64,000 nt of DNA from IMG/VR virus record IMGVR_UViG_2565956726_000008. One strand, given 5' to 3'. This DNA comes from a virus. Lineage: Duplodnaviria; Heunggongvirae; Uroviricota; Caudoviricetes. Position 1 is the stretch's first letter. The number at the start of each line of letters is the position of its first letter. The notes beneath the pieces were generated by a model. The model ran no database searches and was not told the DNA's origin. It worked only from the letters and a program-made list of their open reading frames with translations. Shown piece after piece: positions 3,568 through 64,000 of this stretch. The position numbers were made by a program, and so were the translations under genes.

Positions 3568-4254
3568 GTGAATACTATGATCCATGTTCGTACAGGACAA
3601 TTTGCTGCCGTGGTGAACGGTAAGCGCTATGAGTTTAATCCTTGCTTTGCTGCGATGGCTAAAATCGGCAACGATAGTGAGCTTGTCGAATATTTCGCAC
3701 TTATCCACGGCGGCAAATATCCATCACGATTGCCAGCAGATCCAGACCTCCGCAATCGCATTATGGCGCGGTGTTATGGTGAGATAGTACAAACGTCAAT
3801 GCGCATCCTGAAATGTTGCTCAGACGACGAAATAGCCCCGTTATTGGGTGAATGTAGGTCAACTTCTTCCGGCAAGTTACGACTAAAACCCGGACTGATG
3901 CCGACCAGTGACGTTATCACGCTGGCACAACATTGCATGTACCACGGTTTAATCGGTGACGGGCCAGAAGAAGACGCCGGAGAGATCCGGGAAGGGGAAT
4001 ATAAGCCGACTTTTAACGTGCTGGAATTCGTTTATTCTGCCGTAGCTCACCTGGGATTATCTGAATCAGAAGCGTGGAATATGACAATGACCGGATATAG
4101 GGCCGCTGTACGCGCTAAAACGCCGCCAGAAGCAAGAAACAAACAAAAACGCCCAAATGTATTGCTGGATAAAAAGGCTTATGACGATGGAATGAATGGT
4201 GCTATGGAGATACTAAAAAGAATGAAAAATCGCGAGCAAGAAAAAACCCGGTAG
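3568..4254 (+). CDS. tail assembly chaperone-like protein (G/GT position), putative
   Basis: 228-aa ORF (alternative start MIHV at 3577) between tail tube and tape measure genes; no frameshift signal recognised here, so assignment is positional only. Confidence 0.3.
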   Translation: MNTMIHVRTGQFAAVVNGKRYEFNPCFAAMAKIGNDSELVEYFALIHGGKYPSRLPADPDLRNRIMARCYGEIVQTSMRILKCCSDDEIAPLLGECRSTSSGKLRLKPGLMPTSDVITLAQHCMYHGLIGDGPEEDAGEIREGEYKPTFNVLEFVYSAVAHLGLSESEAWNMTMTGYRAAVRAKTPPEARNKQKRPNVLLDKKAYDDGMNGAMEILKRMKNREQEKTR

Positions 4255-4269
4255 ATCCGGGCGTTTTTG
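4241..4269. terminator. bidirectional terminator between convergent genes
   Basis: aaaaaa-cccgg-tagat-ccggg-cgttttt: short hairpin flanked by an A-run and a T-run, lying between the + strand chaperone gene and the - strand cassette. Confidence 0.45.
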
Positions 4270-4279
4270 TTAAGTTCGC

Positions 4280-4600
4280 TTATGCTATTTTTTCGTAAAG
4301 CACATTCATCTGGGTGCGAATCACTGTTAATATATTGATTGCTGCGTTCTTATTAATGCGTTTATTCGCTACTATTTTTGTTTTCCCATCAATAACAACC
4401 AGATCTGCGTGCAATACATGGTTGAAGTTGACAATGTAATAATACTGTTTATCGCCAACATGTTGAACATATGCACCATTTAGATTTCCTTTATACCCAC
4501 AATCACGCTCTGCGACACCGAAGTCAAATTCGCGGTTCATCTTGCGATTATATGCTACTTGTTTATGTTCCCATTTTCTCATCCATTCATCGCGTTTCAT
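4280..4600 (-). CDS. hypothetical protein (moron cassette 1, distal gene)
   Basis: 106-aa minus-strand ORF 9 nt downstream of the lipoprotein gene, antisense to the tail operon; no family recognised. Confidence 0.45.
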   Translation of the reverse strand: MKRDEWMRKWEHKQVAYNRKMNREFDFGVAERDCGYKGNLNGAYVQHVGDKQYYYIVNFNHVLHADLVVIDGKTKIVANKRINKNAAINILTVIRTQMNVLYEKIA

Positions 4601-4609
4601 GTTTCACCC

Positions 4610-5269
4610 TTAATTCCAGTTGCAAGCGTTTTTCACTTTGTCGATGTGGTTATAAAGACCATCAATGTTAAACACTGCTTTCTCAATGTCGCCAGCTTCC
4701 GGCACTGCTTCAATGATAAATTGTTTTTCGTTAACCAGTTTTTTAATCATTGGGATGGCTTTTTTGCCGTCCCATAATCCAAGAGCTTTATAATTAGTTG
4801 ACCGCCACCACTCAGTAGCTACAGCTTTGTGATCGCCGATCCGGTAGTTAATATAAGTAGTGTCCCCAGCGTCAGTTACATGGTTTGACCATGCTACGAA
4901 CATTTTTGTTTTATTACCCTGGCAAGCGATTGTTAATACAGGTTTGTTTTCATCCCGTGCTTTCAGTGTAGGGAAAGCATCAAGACTTCCGCTGAAATGT
5001 TCTGCTTTCACGAAAAGGAACACGTTTTTTGTGTCCTGCATATCATCTTTTCTTTCGACCACAAGCCACTGTTTACCAGCTTTTTCTTTTGCTAACTGTG
5101 CCTCATATGCGGCTTGTTTTGCTTGTTGTTCTGCAAGCCATTTAGCATTTTTCTCTGCTAATGCTTGTTGTTCTTGAGTGGTCACTATAGGCGCTTTTTC
5201 ATTATCCTCATTGCAACCAACCAGACCCAATACCGCCGCAATCATTGCCACTTTTGCTAACCGTTTCAT
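4610..5269 (-). CDS. lipoprotein (moron cassette 1), function unknown
   Basis: 219-aa ORF; N-terminus MKRLAKVAMIAAVLGLVGC has a signal peptide and lipobox (LVGC); GGTGGG Shine-Dalgarno upstream. Confidence 0.6.
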   Translation of the reverse strand: MKRLAKVAMIAAVLGLVGCNEDNEKAPIVTTQEQQALAEKNAKWLAEQQAKQAAYEAQLAKEKAGKQWLVVERKDDMQDTKNVFLFVKAEHFSGSLDAFPTLKARDENKPVLTIACQGNKTKMFVAWSNHVTDAGDTTYINYRIGDHKAVATEWWRSTNYKALGLWDGKKAIPMIKKLVNEKQFIIEAVPEAGDIEKAVFNIDGLYNHIDKVKNACNWN

Positions 5270-5315
5270 AACCCACCACGCTAACTTGATTTACTGACCA
5301 TTCCCTTTGGCTTCT

Positions 5316-5357
5316 TTATACAAAATGGAGTCGTTGAAGTAAAGCCATTTTGTATAA
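5316..5357. promoter_or_regulatory. 13-bp perfect inverted repeat in divergent intergenic region
   Basis: ttatacaaaatgg (5316-5328) and ccattttgtataa (5345-5357) are exact reverse complements, between the divergent lipoprotein gene and tape measure gene; TATAAA -10-like element at 5353-5358. Confidence 0.35.
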
Positions 5358-5396
5358 AATAGATACACAGATCACATTTTTGCATGAGGTTAAATC

Positions 5397-7739
5397 ATGG
5401 ATACCAGTGTAGGTACAATTTATTACGAAGTTGATGCGAAAACTAGTCAACTTCTCGTTGCACAACGACAGGCAGACCAGGCCTTTGGGCGTATAGAGCG
5501 CGGCGCAAAACAGGCTGACCGCCAGGTAAACACCCTGAAAACATCCATCAAGGCACTGACCAGGGTTATCCATTTGCTAATTGCTGCGGAGGCCGTGCGT
5601 CAATTCATGGATATGGCGGAGCAAGCAAAAATGCTTCGCGTAAAAATCAAAATGCTTACGGGCGATGCGGAGTCCGCCGGACGGGTTTTTGATGGCCTGA
5701 AAGCAATATCAAAAGAAACAGGCCAAAGCATGAAGGATACCGGGGATCTGTGGCAAGGCTTAGCTATCTCACTGAAGAACACGTCCGCCACTGAAGGGCA
5801 ATTGCTTAACCTGGTAGGTACGATTCAGAAAATGGGGGCATTAGGCGGCGCGTCAGCGGAACAGATGTCTAACTCAATGCGTCAATTCCGTCAGTCTATC
5901 GACGGCGGTGTTCTTCGTGCCGAAGAATTTAACAGCCTGCTTGAAAATACGCCGACCATCGTACAAACAATGGCCCGCCATATGGGATTATCAATGGGCC
6001 AGTTCCGCGCCGAAATGCTGGACGGCAAGATCACGGCTGAAAGGATGGTTAACGCAATACAGGCGGCTACGCAGGAAACAAACGATAAGTTTGCTCAGTT
6101 GCCGCGCACATCCGGCATGGCTATCAATGAGCTTAAAGTAGAAATTATGGGCCTTGTTGAGCAGTTGGATGATCTTTTTGGCGTGTCAGATGGCGTTGTT
6201 TCAGCTATCGACTTGATCACGAAAGGCGTTAAAGGGCTTGGCGATGGCGCTAAATTCGCTAAAACCTGCTTCGACACACTCAAAACGGCTGGTAGCGAAT
6301 TTATCGACATGTTTGATGATGTGGCTGTTAAGGCTGGAGAGGTGGCAGAGAAGATCATCGCAATGGTGACGCCAATCAAGGCGCTAATGGATGGCTATAA
6401 ATGGATGAAGGAGGTAGTAGGAGAGCAAACCGACGAATATAACAGCAACTACGAGAAGAAATACGGGAAGACCGTTGGCAAGGTCATGCAACTACAGGAT
6501 GATCTGACCGCAGCAATCCAGGCTACAGAAGAAGCAAGGAAAAATGAACAGAATGCTGCCAATGACGGAGCGATTACCGGATTCGACAAGCCAGTAGACA
6601 AGCCGAAAAAACAGAAAAAAGAGAAGAAATCGGAAGCTGATCGGCTTGGTGACAAAGGTATAAGCGTTTCTGATCAGTACAACAAAGACGCCGCCGCCAT
6701 GCGCAAAGCGTTGGAGAACGGCAAGGCCATTGATGCTGCATTTGCCCAGGGTAAAATCACGCTCCTTGAGTACCGCGCCGCGCAAAAAGGGATCGGCAAG
6801 GAACTGAAAGAAGAATTAGCACAAATTCCGGTAGATGAATTGCGTGATAAATGGTCACAAATAGTAAGCCCGATGGATCAGCTAAAAGGCGAAGTTGACC
6901 CCATCCAGCAGGCGCAAAATGAATGGGCCATCCGTAAGCAAATGCTTATAGACCTGGGCGCTACTGAAGCGCAACAGAAACAGGAATTGTTAGCCTATGA
7001 GCAACAGATCCGCGATCTGAAATGGGAACAATGGCAGGCGCAAAGCGACACAAACGGCCTTATCGGTGATTGTGTTAATGGCCTTAAAGGCGGAATGAGT
7101 AATGCGCTTGTTGGCCTGTTAAACGGCACTCAATCATTGAGTGATGTTTTTGCTAACTTAGGAAGCAATATACTCGGCAATATCGGTAACAGACTCTCAG
7201 ACATAGCTGCAAACTGGATAGCAGATCAGATCATGATGGAGACACAAAGCAAGGCCACGCAAACAAGTACAACAGCAAGCGCGGTAGCAGCTCAGGGAAG
7301 CATTGCTGCGGCGGCGGCCCCAGCAGCGGCGGCAACTGCGGCGTCAACTGGCGGTAGCTGGGCGGCGGCTGGTTCGGCGGCGCTCACTGCGATCATGTCG
7401 CTGGCTACGTCAATTTTCGGCGGCGGTCGCTTTAATGGTGGTAGCGTCATTGGTGGTAATATGTACCGCGTAGGGGAACACAACAGGCCGGAGCTATTCC
7501 AGACATCTAACGGCAATCAATATATGATCCCTGGCGAGAACGGCAGAGTTATTCCGGGCCGTGATATTGGCGGCGGTGGCGGTATTAGTATGCCTGTCAG
7601 TATCAGCATTCAGACCACGAACGGATTCAGCGACGAAGACAGCCGCAGACTTGAATTAACAATGGAACGTGTAGCCATGAAAATGATAACAAGGGAATCT
7701 CAAAGACCAGGCGGAATGTTGCAACCTCGCCGCAAATAA
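5397..7739 (+). CDS. tail tape measure protein (prophage A)
   Basis: 780-aa ORF, long predicted coiled-coil N-terminal part, Ala/Gly-rich C-terminal segment (AAAAPAAAATAASTGGSWAAAGSAALTA), position upstream of M-L-K-I-J. Confidence 0.8.
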   Translation: MDTSVGTIYYEVDAKTSQLLVAQRQADQAFGRIERGAKQADRQVNTLKTSIKALTRVIHLLIAAEAVRQFMDMAEQAKMLRVKIKMLTGDAESAGRVFDGLKAISKETGQSMKDTGDLWQGLAISLKNTSATEGQLLNLVGTIQKMGALGGASAEQMSNSMRQFRQSIDGGVLRAEEFNSLLENTPTIVQTMARHMGLSMGQFRAEMLDGKITAERMVNAIQAATQETNDKFAQLPRTSGMAINELKVEIMGLVEQLDDLFGVSDGVVSAIDLITKGVKGLGDGAKFAKTCFDTLKTAGSEFIDMFDDVAVKAGEVAEKIIAMVTPIKALMDGYKWMKEVVGEQTDEYNSNYEKKYGKTVGKVMQLQDDLTAAIQATEEARKNEQNAANDGAITGFDKPVDKPKKQKKEKKSEADRLGDKGISVSDQYNKDAAAMRKALENGKAIDAAFAQGKITLLEYRAAQKGIGKELKEELAQIPVDELRDKWSQIVSPMDQLKGEVDPIQQAQNEWAIRKQMLIDLGATEAQQKQELLAYEQQIRDLKWEQWQAQSDTNGLIGDCVNGLKGGMSNALVGLLNGTQSLSDVFANLGSNILGNIGNRLSDIAANWIADQIMMETQSKATQTSTTASAVAAQGSIAAAAAPAAAATAASTGGSWAAAGSAALTAIMSLATSIFGGGRFNGGSVIGGNMYRVGEHNRPELFQTSNGNQYMIPGENGRVIPGRDIGGGGGISMPVSISIQTTNGFSDEDSRRLELTMERVAMKMITRESQRPGGMLQPRRK

Positions 7740-7825: not shown

Positions 7826-8080
7826 TCACTTATGAGTGCCTTTCACGCCACATAACTTGTTATAGGCATGGTGCTCAACAATTAACCAAACCTTCAAATC
7901 TTCGCTAAACAGCCTCCAATCAAGATTGATATCCATTTTGTATCCGTAACCGTCGCGTAACTTTTTGGGGTAAACTTCTTTTCTCAGAAAGGCTTTAAGT
8001 AATTCCTTACCTTTCTTGATGATCCGGTCCTGTGCGTTTTTCTGTGCTTTCAGATTTCTGTCAATCGCTACCAGTTTCAT
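7826..8080 (-). CDS. hypothetical protein, possible RelE/YoeB-like toxin (moron cassette 2, distal gene)
   Basis: 84-aa minus-strand ORF; loose resemblance to YoeB/RelE-type toxins (QDRIIKKGKELLK; DWRLFSEDLKVWLIVEHHAY). Assignment is weak. Confidence 0.35.
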   Translation of the reverse strand: MKLVAIDRNLKAQKNAQDRIIKKGKELLKAFLRKEVYPKKLRDGYGYKMDINLDWRLFSEDLKVWLIVEHHAYNKLCGVKGTHK

Positions 8081-8097
8081 AACTCACCCCATCATCC

Positions 8098-8253
8098 TTA
8101 GTTAAGTGCCTTCAGGAAGAAGTCCCGGTATTCATCTTCTTTCGCATTCATCATGAATTGACCGTATTTGAATGCGTCGTCGAAACCCTTAACGATTGCT
8201 ATTTCCACTTGTTCGAATGCGTTATTTAGCATTACTACTACATAGCGTTTCAT
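8098..8253 (-). CDS. small hypothetical protein (moron cassette 2, proximal gene; candidate antitoxin)
   Basis: 51-aa ORF not in the provided track (below 60 aa); ATG at 8251-8253 preceded by GGAGG at correct spacing; stop 17 nt upstream of the 84-aa gene start. Confidence 0.4.
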   Translation of the reverse strand: MKRYVVVMLNNAFEQVEIAIVKGFDDAFKYGQFMMNAKEDEYRDFFLKALN

Positions 8254-8420
8254 TTTGGGCCTCCTTCGTTGGTACTACTTTCTTCTTGCTTTCTATATAC
8301 ATCTTGTTGCGTGCTATGTGAAGCCATTTTGTAAACTAGCTATAATCATTGTGACAATGATCTTATTTTTCGCGTAGAAGCGCGTAAAGATATATACAAA
8401 ATGTAACTTGTGGGGGTTTT

Positions 8421-8774
8421 ATGCCGGAAGTGTTCAGATGGACGCCGCAAAGAAGCTACAGCGTGACCAGGAAGCCAGACGTATCTGTTGTTAAGCTGGG
8501 CGATGGTTATGAGCAAAGACAGGTAAAAGGTATCAATCCATTGCTTGATAGCTACACCCTGGTGTTTAAAGGCAGTAGCGCCGGATGTGGTGATGGTGGA
8601 AACGTAGCAATCCAGGCGGAAGCATTCTTGAGGGCGCGCGGCGCGGTCGAGGCTTTTTACTGGTCGCCGTCAATGGATAACGTGCAAAGGCTTTTTGTCT
8701 GTCGGCAATGGAGCATGACTAAAGACGGGCCTTTGTACACGCTAAACGCAACGTTTGAGCAAGTTGTTGGCTAA
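8421..8774 (+). CDS. minor tail protein M (lambda gpM homolog, divergent)
   Basis: 117 aa; shares lambda M hallmarks (FRWTP..., KLGDGYEQR, C-terminal FEQVVG). Confidence 0.8.
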   Translation: MPEVFRWTPQRSYSVTRKPDVSVVKLGDGYEQRQVKGINPLLDSYTLVFKGSSAGCGDGGNVAIQAEAFLRARGAVEAFYWSPSMDNVQRLFVCRQWSMTKDGPLYTLNATFEQVVG

Positions 8775-8971
8775 TGGGGGTTGTTATGTACGGGACTTGT
8801 GTAGTTGACAAAACTTACGCTTTTACATTGTTTGACGACTATGAGATCAACGACCTTACTGTAAAAGCTGACAACGGCGATATATGGTATCTTCACGACG
8901 TTGGTGATGGGTACGTTGGGTGTAGATCCCGGGAAGGGAAGGAGGTTTTATTTTTGGTTGATGGCGTATAA
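8774..8971 (+). CDS. hypothetical protein translationally coupled to M
   Basis: 65-aa ORF starting in TAATG overlap with M stop; no lambda counterpart between M and L. Confidence 0.4.
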   Translation: MGVVMYGTCVVDKTYAFTLFDDYEINDLTVKADNGDIWYLHDVGDGYVGCRSREGKEVLFLVDGV

Positions 8972-9127: not shown

Positions 9128-9376
9128 CTATAAGTTATCACGCAGATAATTAACGCCCTTATCAGTGACGAATGAATGGTTAACCTGGTTTTCATCCGTC
9201 ATGATGATGAATAACTTTTCATGTAGGTATTTCGCTTTCGGGTACAGCGTTAAACAGACCTGGTACAGTATCCCGCGCTCAATCAGCAAATCAATAAATT
9301 CGTGTTCATGATAACCGATGAGGCGGGCGGCCTGTTTCAACGTGTACACATAATCACCGTGATTGCGCCGCCCCAT
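9128..9376 (-). CDS. hypothetical protein with HTH-like segment (moron cassette 3, gene 3)
   Basis: 82-aa minus-strand ORF; YTLKQAARLIGYHEHEFIDLLIERGIL resembles MerR/excisionase-type helix-turn-helix. Confidence 0.45.
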   Translation of the reverse strand: MGRRNHGDYVYTLKQAARLIGYHEHEFIDLLIERGILYQVCLTLYPKAKYLHEKLFIIMTDENQVNHSFVTDKGVNYLRDNL

Positions 9377-9385
9377 GTTGCCGCC

Positions 9386-9733
9386 TTATTTATCGAATGC
9401 TGAAAGGTTATCGATACAGAAATCTTTCGCCGCTTTTTCGTATTCGCGTTTTGCTTCTGGATCGTCAGCCGGGAAACCTTTTGCGTGTATTTCACCAGGG
9501 CAAGACTGGTCCATAGAATCTGCATAATAAGCAGTGAAGCTACCATTAATATCTTTCGGGTTCATATCTTCCACCTCATCAACTATCTGTACCGGATTAG
9601 CAGCATATTTCACTGGATGGCCTAAACTACATTCAAGAATCCTGCCTTCTTCCAGGGCTACTTCTTCGCTATCAAATAATCCGAAACACTCCTTGCTACC
9701 ACTTAACCACACATCAAGACTGTATTTTTTCAT
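9386..9733 (-). CDS. hypothetical protein (moron cassette 3, gene 2)
   Basis: 116 aa from internal ATG (MKKYSLDVWLSG...); the 149-aa listed ORF would overlap the upstream gene extensively. N-terminus appears paralogous to gene 1. Confidence 0.45.
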   Translation of the reverse strand: MKKYSLDVWLSGSKECFGLFDSEEVALEEGRILECSLGHPVKYAANPVQIVDEVEDMNPKDINGSFTAYYADSMDQSCPGEIHAKGFPADDPEAKREYEKAAKDFCIDNLSAFDK

Positions 9734-9902
9734 TTTTGTTAGCCTCATATTTGACAGGTTCGATCTGGTATCCCAAAAGGCGGTCATCCTCAGCAAGTAA
9801 AAGCGCGTCAACCAATGCTTCACCCTCGTCGTCATACAGGGCGATAACCTTTTCCCTACCGTCTGTCATGAATACCGTCAACTTCCATAGCTTTTCAGTC
9901 AT
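9714..9902 (-). CDS. hypothetical small protein (moron cassette 3, gene 1)
   Basis: 62 aa from internal ATG (MTEKLWKLTVFMTDGREKVIALYDDEGEALVDA...); overlaps gene 2 by 20 nt. Confidence 0.4.
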   Translation of the reverse strand: MTEKLWKLTVFMTDGREKVIALYDDEGEALVDALLLAEDDRLLGYQIEPVKYEANKNEKIQS

Positions 9903-10031
9903 AACGCACCTCCGCGCCATTTTGTTAACTATGCTTCCGTTTGAGTAAAATATACATATTGTAAAAACCGCGATCAATCCATTTTGGTATGATTTAGCGT
10001 GACGCAGATCACAGAATGACAAGGTGAGAAA

Positions 10032-10736
10032 ATGCGCAATATTCCGAGAGAAATGATTATTGATTCCGTCGATGCCGGAGTCGGCGCGGTAATTGACTTG
10101 TTTGAATTAGACCTCACGCCCCTGGGTGGCGAGGTTATCCGCTTCCATTCCGGCGTGAATGGCTATTACGGCCCGGTTATCTGGAAGGGGGTGGCTTACA
10201 ACAGCTACCCTATCGAGGCCACTGGCTTCGAAATGAAAAACGAGGGTGTCTATTCACGCCCGCAAATGGTTGTAGCCAACATTGGCGGCCTAATCACCGG
10301 GATGAATAACGATTTCAACGACCTGCGAGGAATGAAAGTTACACGCCGCCAGGTGGAAGTAAAATACCTGGACGCCATCAACTTCCCCAACGGCAACCCG
10401 GATGCAGATCCGTCTATCGAGGCGGTGTCTTTTTACGTCGTTGAGGCGATGAGCGAAGAAACAGCCGACCAGGTGCAATATGAGCTGTCAACGCCAATTG
10501 ATGCTGACAAGGCGGTTATCCCAGGGCGCACAATCCTTGCTGACGTTTGCCAATGGCAATATCGCGGCGACGGTTGCGGATACAGTGGCGGCCCTGTAGC
10601 TACTGATAAAGACGAATCGACCAGCGATCCAAAGCTGGATAAATGCAGCCACCGCCTGAGCGGTTGCCGTTTACGTTTCCCGCGCCCGAATCCGTTACCA
10701 ATTTCATGTTTCCCAGGATCGAGCAAGGTGGGTTGA
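10032..10736 (+). CDS. minor tail protein L (lambda gpL homolog, divergent)
   Basis: 234 aa; alignable with lambda L (e.g. WQYRGDGCGYSGGPVA vs lambda WTYRGDECGYSGPAVA). Confidence 0.85.
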   Translation: MRNIPREMIIDSVDAGVGAVIDLFELDLTPLGGEVIRFHSGVNGYYGPVIWKGVAYNSYPIEATGFEMKNEGVYSRPQMVVANIGGLITGMNNDFNDLRGMKVTRRQVEVKYLDAINFPNGNPDADPSIEAVSFYVVEAMSEETADQVQYELSTPIDADKAVIPGRTILADVCQWQYRGDGCGYSGGPVATDKDESTSDPKLDKCSHRLSGCRLRFPRPNPLPISCFPGSSKVG

Positions 10737-16859: not shown

Positions 16860-17105
16860 TTATTTTTTACACCCATCATTTACACCAGAAAAATGGATAG
16901 GTAAATTACATTCACTGTCAATAATTTTACCTTGTAGTTGTTTTTCTTTCCATGAGTCAGTATTGAAATAACTCGAACGTTGGTTATCAAGGCCAGTATC
17001 ACCATATTGAGCAGTGCCAGCATCACTCTTATCTGTCGAATTTACAGAAGCAAAAGCACCAAAAGACAGAGCTGATAAGATGCAAGCAACAATTAGTTTT
17101 TTCAT
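16860..17105 (-). CDS. small secreted cysteine-containing protein (moron, lom/bor position)
   Basis: 81 aa from MKKLIVACILSALSFGAFA (signal peptide); three Cys in the last 20 residues; minus strand between J and the tail fibre gene. Confidence 0.5.
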   Translation of the reverse strand: MKKLIVACILSALSFGAFASVNSTDKSDAGTAQYGDTGLDNQRSSYFNTDSWKEKQLQGKIIDSECNLPIHFSGVNDGCKK

Positions 17106-23794: not shown

Positions 23795-25030
23795 CTACGA
23801 TAACCGCGCATTCAACATGGCTATCTGTTCGTCGTTCATGTCATCAATCCACATACCGTAAATTTCATACACCATCTGCGCAGTTTCATGCCCCATTTGG
23901 CTGGCTATAAATGCCGGGTTCGCTCCTGCCGTCAACAGCCAGCAGGCAAAAGTATGCCGCGTATGGTACGGATTACGGCGGCGAATACCAGCACGTTTTA
24001 CTGCTGCATTCCACCTTGCCCCCAAACTGCTTACCGAGTAATAAGGTTTTTGTTTTCCGTTACACACCCTGGGCATGAAAACAAAATGCAGTTTTTGCTT
24101 TTCGGTTCTGCCGTACTCCCGATGATAAAAGGTGATTTCGCTTTTGCGATGATGCCCGGTCAGTTTGTATTGCTCCTTCAGTGCTTCAAGAGCAGGCTGC
24201 AGTAGTGTTACTGTTCGGATCCCGGCATTTGTTTTTGGGGGACCGAACATATCAAGTATCGTCAGGTTTCTTCTGACATTCACTATTCCCTTTTCGAGAT
24301 CCACATCCTCCCACGCCAGAGCTGCCAGTTCCCCGTGACGAAGTCCTGAGTAAACGGCAAATTTCCACAAGTTCTGGCTCTGTCCTTTTTCACTTTCCAT
24401 TAATGCATTGAATTCTGTTTTAGATAACGGATCAGGCTTTATTCTGTTTCGCTGTAATTTTTTTACTCCTTCAAATGGTTTGGTTGATATAAATCCCGAC
24501 TGATACGCAAAACGCAACAGCGAACAGAGCAGGGCGATATAGTTATCAACTGTGCGCACGGTTCTTCCTTTTTTGTTGGATCTTGGATTATCCAGGTAAA
24601 GCGTTTCTCCATGCAGCAGTTCATTCCGGTAGTTTAAGATATCGCTATAACGAATATGTGATATCGGGGTACTTTCACAAATTATTATTCTGAGTGTTTT
24701 TAATTGTGATTTCGTTTTCTTCATTGTGTTTGTTGTTAACTCTGTCTCTTTAATTTTTGTCCAGATATCACAAAGCTCTCCGAACGTTTTTATGACTCTC
24801 GTTGTCACCATTTTTGCCCCAGTGCTGGACTGGGGAAAACGTCTTAAATACTCAAATTCACCGGAGTTTATTTCATGAACTATCAGCGCTCTTAAATTTC
24901 CGGCCTTTTTAATATTACTGTTTGTAATCTCCCAGCCTTTTAATGTTTCCCGACATCGTTTTCCTCGAAACATGAACCAGATGCGAATGTATCTACCTCT
25001 AATCTCGACACCTGTTGGTAATTTAGACAT
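23795..25030 (-). CDS. intR: prophage integrase (tyrosine recombinase), Rac-type
   Basis: 411 aa; C-terminal catalytic region with R...HTRHT...Y residues; located next to ttcA as in K-12 Rac. Confidence 0.9.
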   Translation of the reverse strand: MSKLPTGVEIRGRYIRIWFMFRGKRCRETLKGWEITNSNIKKAGNLRALIVHEINSGEFEYLRRFPQSSTGAKMVTTRVIKTFGELCDIWTKIKETELTTNTMKKTKSQLKTLRIIICESTPISHIRYSDILNYRNELLHGETLYLDNPRSNKKGRTVRTVDNYIALLCSLLRFAYQSGFISTKPFEGVKKLQRNRIKPDPLSKTEFNALMESEKGQSQNLWKFAVYSGLRHGELAALAWEDVDLEKGIVNVRRNLTILDMFGPPKTNAGIRTVTLLQPALEALKEQYKLTGHHRKSEITFYHREYGRTEKQKLHFVFMPRVCNGKQKPYYSVSSLGARWNAAVKRAGIRRRNPYHTRHTFACWLLTAGANPAFIASQMGHETAQMVYEIYGMWIDDMNDEQIAMLNARLS

Positions 25031-62887: not shown

Positions 62888-64000
62888 ATGGGTAAAGGCA
62901 GCAGTAAGGGGCATACCCCGCGCGAAGCGAAGGACAACCTGAAGTCCACGCAGCTGCTGAGTGTGATCGATGCCATCAGCGAAGGGCCGGTTGAAGGTCC
63001 GGTGGATGGATTAAAAAGCGTGCTGCTGAACAGTACGCCGGTGCTGGACAGTGAGGGGAATACCAATATATCCGGCGTCACGGTGGTGTTCCGGGCCGGT
63101 GAGCAGGAGCAGACACCGCCGGAGGGATTTGAATCCTCCGGCTCCGAGACGGTGCTGGGTACGGAAGTGAAGTACGACACGCCGATTACCCGGACCATCA
63201 CGTCGGCAAACATCGACCGTCTGCGCTTTACCTTCGGTGTGCAGGCACTGGTGGAAACCACCTCAAAGGGGGACCGGAATCCGTCGGAAGTCCGCCTGCT
63301 GGTTCAGATACAGCGTAATGGTGGCTGGGTGACGGAAAAAGACATCACCATTAAAGGCAAAACCACCTCACAGTATCTGGCCTCGGTGGTGGTGGGTGAC
63401 CTGCCGCCGCGTCCGTTCAATATCCGGATGCGCAGGATGACGCCGGACAGCACCACAGACCAGCTGCAGAACAAAACGCTCTGGTCGTCATACACCGAAA
63501 TCATCGATGTGAAACAGTGCTACCCGAACACGGCACTGGTCGGCGTACAGGTGGATTCGGAGCAGTTCGGCAGCCAGCAGGTGAGCCGTAATTATCATCT
63601 GCGCGGGCGTATTCTGCAGGTGCCGTCGAACTATAACCCGCAGACTCGGCAATACAGCGGTATCTGGGACGGAACGTTTAAGCCAGCATACAGCAATAAC
63701 ATGGCCTGGTGTCTGTGGGATATGCTGACCCATCCACGCTACGGCATGGGGAAACGTCTTGGTGCGGCGGATGTGGACAAATGGGCGCTGTATGTCATCG
63801 GCCAGTACTGCGACCAGTCAGTGCCGGACGGCTTTGGCGGCACGGAGCCGCGCATCACCTGTAATGCGTACCTGACCACACAGCGCAAGGCGTGGGATGT
63901 GCTCAGTGATTTCTGCTCGGCGATGCGCTGTATGCCGGTATGGAACGGGCAGACGCTGACGTTCGTGCAGGACCGACCGTCGGATAAGGTGTGGACCTAT
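62888..64000 (+). CDS. J: host specificity protein J (5' part; continues beyond window)
   Basis: ATG at 62888; MGKGSSKGHTPREAKDNLKSTQLLSVIDAISEGP... is near-identical to the lambda J N-terminus as I recall it; no stop before window end, so absent from the ORF track. Confidence 0.9.
   Translation, partial: MGKGSSKGHTPREAKDNLKSTQLLSVIDAISEGPVEGPVDGLKSVLLNSTPVLDSEGNTNISGVTVVFRAGEQEQTPPEGFESSGSETVLGTEVKYDTPITRTITSANIDRLRFTFGVQALVETTSKGDRNPSEVRLLVQIQRNGGWVTEKDITIKGKTTSQYLASVVVGDLPPRPFNIRMRRMTPDSTTDQLQNKTLWSSYTEIIDVKQCYPNTALVGVQVDSEQFGSQQVSRNYHLRGRILQVPSNYNPQTRQYSGIWDGTFKPAYSNNMAWCLWDMLTHPRYGMGKRLGAADVDKWALYVIGQYCDQSVPDGFGGTEPRITCNAYLTTQRKAWDVLSDFCSAMRCMPVWNGQTLTFVQDRPSDKVWTY

Follow-up and report, generated by a model that had tools for sequence, protein, structure and literature searches.

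An antisense cassette within the tail operon

The stretch of DNA analyzed here (64,000 nucleotides (nt) of the Caudoviricetes record IMGVR_UViG_2565956726_000008 from IMG/VR, hereafter referred to as the window) contains, at positions 4280–5269, a cassette of two genes transcribed in antisense orientation to a phage tail operon. The first gene (4610–5269, minus strand), defined by the open reading frame (ORF) call and by matches to PF11319 and phrog_1848, encodes a 219-amino-acid (aa) predicted lipoprotein of the VasI/TagO family, and the second (4280–4600, minus strand), defined by the ORF call, encodes a basic 106-aa protein from an orphan family. Both ORFs are present exactly where an earlier reading of the sequence (hereafter referred to as the original prediction) had placed them. 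They share the same orientation, are separated by 9 nt, and each is preceded by a sequence resembling a ribosome-binding site (RBS; GGTGG/GGGTG). For the lipoprotein gene, compared with homologues 54–95% identical, pairwise ratios of nonsynonymous to synonymous substitution rates (dN/dS) were 0.16–0.25; the 106-aa gene, compared with a copy 72% identical to it, had a ratio of 0.26. Both ORFs thus evolve as proteins; the two-gene observation is therefore confirmed, and both genes are real.

The cassette is bordered on the left by a gene encoding a DUF6246 protein (3568–4254, plus strand; PF19759, E = 2e-54) and on the right by the tape measure protein gene (5397–7739, plus strand; PF20155 TMP_3, E = 6e-49; phrog_1538). 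These flanks bear out the proposed position between a tail-chaperone-like gene and a tape measure gene. The DUF6246 gene follows the tail tube gene, in the tail-assembly-chaperone position, but the label “tail chaperone” is positional only, DUF6246/phrog_791 having no assigned function.

The GC content of the cassette is 0.38–0.41, versus about 0.49 in the flanking regions. A bidirectional terminator had been suggested at 4241–4269, and a GC-rich hairpin at 4246–4262, between the converging DUF6246 gene and cassette, was indeed called as an intrinsic terminator on both strands. It consists of CCCGG-loop-CCGGG with an A-run and a T-run, giving T-runs on both strands, and has RNA fold z-scores of -3.0 and -2.6. 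The low GC content, the terminator and a conserved upstream module described below agree with the original view of an independently organized antisense cassette.

The 219-aa product belongs to the VasI/TagO family and is very probably a lipoprotein

The original prediction did not recognize the 219-aa protein, but this protein can be placed in the VasI/TagO family. It matched PF11319, described in Pfam as “Type VI secretion system VasI, EvfG, VC_A0118”, with an E-value of 5.6e-16 and a score of 59.2 bits (gathering threshold (GA) 26.5), residues 55–218 aligning with positions 25–184 of the 184-position profile. It also matched phrog_1848 (E = 1.8e-57), a PHROG without assigned function, and its RefSeq annotation is TagO. 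A profile search of 1.84 billion representatives recovered 1870 VasI-family relatives, and a scan of species-representative genomes found no relative of the close subfamily. Searches of the PDB by sequence with the 219-aa protein and the VasI profile, as well as with the 106-aa protein, gave nothing beyond chance-level matches to YpeA (E = 0.4), and a BFVD search returned matches to uncharacterized phage proteins only.

The signal peptide with an LVGC lipobox noted in the original prediction was recovered with the pattern [LVI][ASTVI][GAS]C applied at the signal peptide end: in MKRLAKVAMIAAVLGLVGC, the residues L16-V17-G18-C19 follow a basic n-region and a hydrophobic core, and G15, L16, G18 and C19 are invariant across 12 close homologues. 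The first product of the cassette is, on this sequence evidence, very probably a lipoprotein, with a mature form of about 201 residues.

Structure prediction, proposed originally as a check, yielded a confident AlphaFold2 (AF2) model (predicted local distance difference test (pLDDT) score of 90) from an alignment of 79 sequences. This model superseded a first one, built from the 12 close homologues (pLDDT 69), for which the Foldseek matches in the PDB were noise. The predicted architecture comprises the signal peptide, a short disordered linker, a helix of about 33 residues (approximately 31–63) and an IalB-like beta-sandwich (approximately 66–219). In the 79-sequence family alignment, C116, C216, T121, R143 and W218 are invariant, the C-terminal motif being ACNW, and the C116/C216 pair would fit a periplasmic disulfide. 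A lipobox is unusual for the VasI family, being found in five of 108 full-length representatives, and the N-terminal RLxCYD motif present in 39 of these 108 is absent from the 219-aa protein. The protein can therefore be regarded as a lipid-anchored, stalked variant of a family of mostly soluble or transmembrane (TM)-anchored proteins. Identification as a spanin was rejected: a match to an Rz-like PHROG was weak (E = 0.05) and did not extend beyond the signal peptide and helix, and the gene lies far from lysis cassettes.

Membership of this family raises the question of a role in type VI secretion, in which the protein would modulate the host's type VI secretion system (T6SS) or act as an immunity-like or decoy periplasmic guard against T6SS attack. 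The protein is a true PF11319 member by sequence, the VasI of Vibrio cholerae is required for amoeba killing and contributes to the killing of Escherichia coli (PMC3166118), and tagO is found within E. coli T6SS-2 clusters (PMC10562709). However, the score obtained with the NCBIfam VasI equivalog model (TIGR03360) was 47 bits, well short of the cutoff of 124.2, the gene is surrounded by phage tail genes and no T6SS genes are close to it, the protein has the rare lipobox and lacks the RLxCYD motif, and unrelated secreted proteins take its place in sister phages. We consider a T6SS role unlikely.

The cassette lies in a cargo hotspot of mEpimmI-type prophages

The tape measure gene was 80–85% identical at the nucleotide level to those of phages mEp021, mEp010, mEp044, mEp554 and MagusPhagus, and the intergenic palindrome region was 91% identical to that of phage mEp013. 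The prophage therefore belongs to the mEpimmI group, which consists of Nus-dependent, non-lambdoid coliphages (PMC11893012). A comparison of 30 related prophage and phage loci together with the window itself revealed at least six different contents in the slot between the DUF6246 and tape measure genes. The VasI-like 219-aa gene was accompanied by the 106-aa gene in nine loci, including the window, and by a gene for an unrelated 124-aa lipoprotein with a weak BamE-like match in 11. Four loci carried instead a gene for a 160-aa secreted protein, followed by a 72%-identical 106-aa gene and the 124-aa lipoprotein gene. A 60%-identical VasI-like gene of 203 aa stood alone in two loci, mEp013 encoded the 124-aa lipoprotein together with, as first product, a 59-aa protein whose N-terminal segment is hydrophobic, and a 138-aa secreted protein occurred alone in mEp010 and mEp021. 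Locus L015 breaks off shortly after the VasI-like gene, and its second gene is not covered.

The first gene of every combination encodes a signal peptide or an N-terminal hydrophobic segment. The palindrome, the RBS and the first 8–10 codons (MKRLAKVA...) are conserved across configurations, with divergence starting within the signal-peptide coding region. The alternative first genes lie at 4482–4964 in L006–L009 (160 aa) and at 2554–2970 and 2390–2806 in L035 and L036, respectively (138 aa); their products are apparently helical, have no family match and start with MKRL(A/I)K(V/A)A, like the lipoprotein. This shared start places the recombination junction inside the signal-peptide coding sequence. 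Given the conservation of the upstream region and signal-peptide start and the variability of the remainder, a single regulatory and export “socket” receives different envelope-directed cargo.

The cassette thus combines extra DNA at a fixed variable site with its own terminator, a promoter-like region and an atypical GC content, the features by which a moron is recognized, and on these sequence features it is a moron in a cargo hotspot of an mEpimmI-type E. coli prophage. It is also an object of an ordinary kind, occupying a known moron position, and its lipoprotein comes from a family that databases already name but whose function is obscure. The hotspot comparison also bears on a virion or tail-assembly function, for which the location of the genes inside the tail gene cluster could be cited. 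The genes are, however, antisense to the operon, absent or replaced in the viable sister phages mEp013, mEp010 and mEp021, and atypical in GC content, and the product is a predicted lipoprotein with periplasmic features, making such a function extremely unlikely.

The conserved upstream region

The divergent intergenic region between the lipoprotein and tape measure genes contains a 14-nt inverted repeat at 5315–5358, found by palindrome search and not assigned to a strand. Its arms (5315–5328 and 5345–5358; TTTATACAAAATGG-N16-CCATTTTGTATAAA) are 14 nt each, 100% complementary and 16 nt apart, with RNA fold z-scores of -3.0/-3.75. For the “palindromic promoter region” originally described at 5316–5357, the palindrome is indeed perfect, but no promoter emerged from a consensus scan, which is considered below. 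The promoter is partly supported by a promoter-like module on the minus strand, consisting of TTTACT (5343–5338), a 17-nt spacer and TATAAA (5320–5315), a 9/12 match read by eye that overlaps the palindrome, and by the strong conservation of the region. The palindrome region was retained in all hotspot configurations, including loci in which the tape measure protein was only 31% identical. The palindrome is kept in loci without the 106-aa gene, and the 106-aa protein therefore cannot be the factor recognizing it. A nut or antitermination role for the palindrome was rejected, as the nut sites of the mEpimmI group are located in the early region, and an Rfam search of positions 4000–5600 identified no RNA family.

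The region at 5315–5358 shares its module and spacing with that ahead of a second antisense cassette of the window, encoding a ParE-like protein. The sequence TACAAAATGGCTTyACw-N17-TATAwA-GAA occurs with equal spacing ahead of the VasI-like (5315–5358) and ParE-like (8323–8345) cassettes, and the core ACAAAATGGC is also found immediately 5' of the RBS of a third cassette (9917–9930). The shared module may be a common moron promoter or operator; it had just three matches at up to two mismatches in the 64 kb, a number that alone is not strongly above chance. Three related prophages (L024, L025 and L026) have a 133-bp leader insertion between the palindrome and the lipoprotein RBS, containing a 29-codon ORF (MKNVNYRPNEHERYADFIEEMLKSLKNKN).

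The 106-aa gene is a separable module

The 106-aa product, described originally as cytoplasmic-looking, does lack a signal peptide and is basic, with an isoelectric point of 9.6. It was represented by only three protein clusters among 5.8 billion sequences and had no match in Pfam, PHROG, NCBIfam, PADLOC or the PDB. PADLOC likewise returned no match for the lipoprotein or the 124-aa lipoprotein. Kinship with the Tai tail-assembly-inhibition systems was considered, because of the location in the tail operon, and rejected: the known Tai systems lie upstream of the packaging module, and no link between them and this gene emerged.

The description of the cassette as a lipoprotein plus partner proved misleading. 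In related prophages, the lipoprotein gene has another partner in 11 loci and stands alone in two, and the 106-aa gene is found without it in four. These combinatorial slot contents indicate that the two genes are separable modules rather than an obligate pair, and the 106-aa gene can be regarded as a genuine cargo gene that moves independently. Of 5426 complete E. coli genomes, 19 contained the lipoprotein gene, and just one of these (strain M1/5) also had the 106-aa gene.

An obligate two-gene system, of the sensor-effector, toxin-antitoxin or effector-immunity type, would account for the common strand, the 9-nt gap, the single promoter-like region upstream and the co-occurrence of the genes in nine loci. 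It is difficult to reconcile with the association of the lipoprotein with an unrelated 124-aa lipoprotein or with no second gene at all, and with the occurrence of the 106-aa gene without the lipoprotein gene in L006–L009. Furthermore, the two products are predicted to be located in different compartments, no toxin-antitoxin or defense-system matches were obtained, and the 106-aa protein displayed no similarity to SDIC4A (see the comparison with SDIC4B below). Such a system is highly unlikely, obligate pairing being already largely refuted by the distribution of the genes.

VasI-like genes in other temperate phages

VasI-like genes were also found in phages outside this group. In Brucella phage BiPBO1, the VasI-like gene starts 8 nt downstream of a CI-type repressor gene (helix-turn-helix plus S24); Labrenzia phage V1 carries it two genes from cI, and in Pasteurella phage Pmp14 it stands between the chaperone and tape measure genes. 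In the P2-like Klebsiella phage 3LV2017, it is located just inside attR, and in the P2-like E. coli phage 500465-2 it lies at the prophage end beside the host gene flk, after a zinc-ribbon/transmembrane gene. Judged by gene order, unrelated temperate phages repeatedly carry VasI-like genes where lysogen-expressed cargo is typically found.

The VasI-like proteins of the P2-like phages have three RLxCYD repeats, and their genes are preceded by that for a zinc-ribbon protein with TM segments. In one family representative, a zinc ribbon is fused to the VasI domain. These observations concern L004 (4169–5399), L005 (about 4530–5430) and P0034. This arrangement hints at a two-part architecture, extending from the cytoplasm to the periplasm, in other branches of the family.

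A possible role in superinfection exclusion

The most plausible role for the 219-aa protein, to which we assign slightly less than an even chance, is that of a prophage-expressed envelope protein excluding superinfecting phages. The cassette would be transcribed in the lysogen from its own promoter overlapping the palindrome, against the late operon, with transcription ending at the bidirectional terminator. The lipoprotein precursor would be exported by Sec and lipidated at Cys19 and, with asparagine at position +2, would probably be sorted, by the +2 rule, to the inner face of the outer membrane. The helix, about 5 nm long, would then hold the beta-sandwich, stabilized by a C116-C216 disulfide, in the periplasm, where it would bind the periplasmic part of an envelope-spanning machine. 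The likeliest target would be the tail tip or tape-measure conduit of the superinfecting phage, or a host factor needed by that phage, and binding would block DNA entry, resulting in superinfection exclusion. The basic, cytoplasmic 106-aa protein would be the product of a second, independent cargo gene.

Envelope localization is supported by the lipobox, the invariant cysteine pair and the confident structural model. Exclusion is plausible because the cassette occupies the site at which HK97 carries its exclusion moron, gp15, and because lipoproteins of the mEpimmI group exclude phages. It is also favored by the independent organization of the cassette, the interchangeable contents of the hotspot, the placement of VasI-like genes at lysogenic-conversion positions in unrelated temperate phages and the phage protection reported for SDIC4B. 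Several observations weigh against this role. A consensus sigma-70 scan of positions 5270–5396 identified no promoter. Homologues differ in their +2 residue (N, R, D, G, E), which makes sorting to the outer membrane uncertain. The dN/dS values of about 0.2 indicate ordinary purifying selection, with no obvious arms-race signature. Exclusion by the 219-aa protein is proposed by analogy, and no mechanism is known for the VasI family (PMC13584744). The tested mEpimmI exclusion lipoproteins are small, encoded at the Cor position and unrelated to the 219-aa protein beyond the signal peptide. Finally, no sequence relation to SDIC4B was detected (hhalign probability <1%), this precedent depending on the fold claim of a preprint.

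Another type of cargo would be a lysogenic-conversion factor contributing to fitness or virulence, unrelated to phage defense, in the manner of lambda Bor and Lom or Bartonella IalB, through adhesion, serum or stress resistance, or interaction with host cells. A homologue from a P2-like phage gave a sub-threshold match to the IalB Pfam family, Zheng et al. proposed a possible adhesin function for VCA0118, and the gene is carried by E. coli strains of gut and clinical origin. Such a function is nevertheless doubtful: the mechanism of IalB is itself unknown, the lipoprotein is predicted to face the periplasm and has no sequence sign of surface exposure, and the swappable neighbors, which include a BamE-like lipoprotein and small membrane proteins, are more typical of entry-blocking cargo. 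A broader interpretation would unite superinfection exclusion with the T6SS affiliation of the family. VasI/TagO-fold periplasmic domains might be general blockers or guards of envelope-piercing machines, used by temperate phages, in this prophage in the form of a stalked lipoprotein, to keep incoming tails from completing DNA entry, with the chromosomal T6SS accessory protein TagO/VasI acting similarly at the T6SS envelope passage; by analogy this is conceivable, but we hold it to be quite unlikely.

If the 219-aa protein does exclude phages, PHROG 1848 and the VasI/TagO branch carried by phages would acquire a function; the T6SS literature lists this family as “unknown”. This would also add a further exclusion determinant for mEpimmI phages, which reportedly match lambdoid phages in frequency in human feces. 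Should general blocking prove correct, a function could be given to an orphan family of T6SS accessory proteins, linked to exclusion through SDIC4B, the cI-adjacent prophage copies and the hotspot. Should the protein have no effect on phages, it would be one more prophage cargo gene without an assigned role. The presence of at least six cargo combinations behind one conserved promoter/signal-peptide junction makes their envelope effects directly comparable. Three aspects are mildly new: the lipid-anchored, stalked VasI architecture, the clear view of cassette exchange at a conserved promoter/signal-peptide junction, and the recurrence of VasI-like genes at lysogenic-conversion sites, from which a hypothesis open to testing follows for this orphan family of T6SS accessory proteins.

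Other features of the window

The second antisense cassette (7826–8253, minus strand) separates the tape measure gene from the next tail gene and encodes an 84-aa ParE-like toxin (PF24732, E = 9e-12), preceded by a 51-aa ORF (phrog_29810); the two are probably a toxin-antitoxin pair carried as a moron. The third (9128–9902, minus strand) is found within the tail operon, between the tail genes at 8421–8971 and a gpL-like gene at 10032, and encodes an 82-aa KilAC/antirepressor-like protein (PF03374) together with one or two small ORFs (phrog_38567). Just after the J-like tail tip gene, at the position of Lpp010 in mEp010, a gene at 16860–17105 (minus strand) encodes an 81-aa secreted protein (MKKLIVACILSALSFGAFA...) with no convincing lipobox and a mature sequence different from that of Lpp010.

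The mEpimmI-type prophage ends at about 19.4 kb and is followed by the host genes zntB, dbpA and ttcA (region from 19845). A second prophage starts with an integrase gene (23795–25030, minus strand) beside ttcA, at a site that we take to be the Rac attachment region, and continues to the end of the window at 64000. Strain M1/5 has only an integrase remnant at the ttcA-adjacent site.

Comparison with known systems

The 219-aa protein resembles VasI/TagO, represented by V. cholerae VCA0118, in being an exported protein, as predicted from its signal peptide, with an invariant cysteine pair, T121, R143 and a C-terminal AC-x-W. It differs in that a lipid anchor and a coiled helix replace the usual signal peptide and RLxCYD of VasI, and in the absence of a surrounding T6SS cluster, phage tail genes flanking the gene in all 25 related loci with a close homologue. 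VCA0118 is dispensable for Hcp/VgrG secretion, in addition to the killing phenotypes mentioned above (PMC3166118), and a 2026 review lists the function of TagO/VasI as unknown (PMC13584744). Similarity to IalB (PDB 3dtd) amounts to 9% sequence identity, and IalB has neither a lipid anchor nor the helix.

The Serratia defense-island protein SDIC4B is reported to confer, on its own, 10- to 200-fold protection against phages, its neighboring gene being dispensable, and has been described as periplasmic, with a VasI-like fold according to HHpred (bioRxiv 10.1101/2024.01.28.577318). SDIC4B (PF27224) shares with the 219-aa protein a periplasmic location, predicted for the latter, and two conserved cysteines, but it is not a lipoprotein and is found in a chromosomal defense-island context with BrxR. 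With its sequence recovered from the plasmid table of the preprint and a family profile built, hhalign comparison of the VasI profile gave probabilities of 0.3% with the SDIC4B sequence and 0.9% with a 20-sequence SDIC4B profile. The 106-aa protein does not resemble SDIC4A, and there is no BrxR near the cassette.

The original prediction compared the 219-aa protein with Cor- and Llp-type factors, remarking that it is much larger than these. The size difference stands (201 mature residues versus about 60–80 aa), but the protein is not Cor- or Llp-like, only residues 1–26 aligning with Lpp010. Like Cor, Llp and the mEpimmI lipoproteins Lpp010 and Lpp021, the last two of which have been shown to exclude phages (PMC11893012), it is a predicted prophage lipoprotein encoded in the structural region. 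Lpp010, in contrast, is an 82-aa protein encoded at the Cor position, after J, and the predicted fold of the 219-aa protein is different. The study describing Lpp010 and Lpp021 (PMC11893012) makes no mention of VasI or TagO.

A positional parallel is gene 15 of HK97, the first moron described, which has the chaperone gene on one side and the tape measure gene on the other; it is expressed by the prophage and prevents the DNA of superinfecting phages from entering (PMC3594210). The two share the same genomic slot, organization as an independent unit with an atypical GC content and a product located, or here predicted to be located, in the envelope. HK97 gp15 is, however, a small YebO-like inner-membrane protein with one TM helix, bearing no sequence or fold relation to the 219-aa protein, and its function was tested experimentally (Cumby et al. 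2012), whereas the 219-aa protein is known from its sequence.

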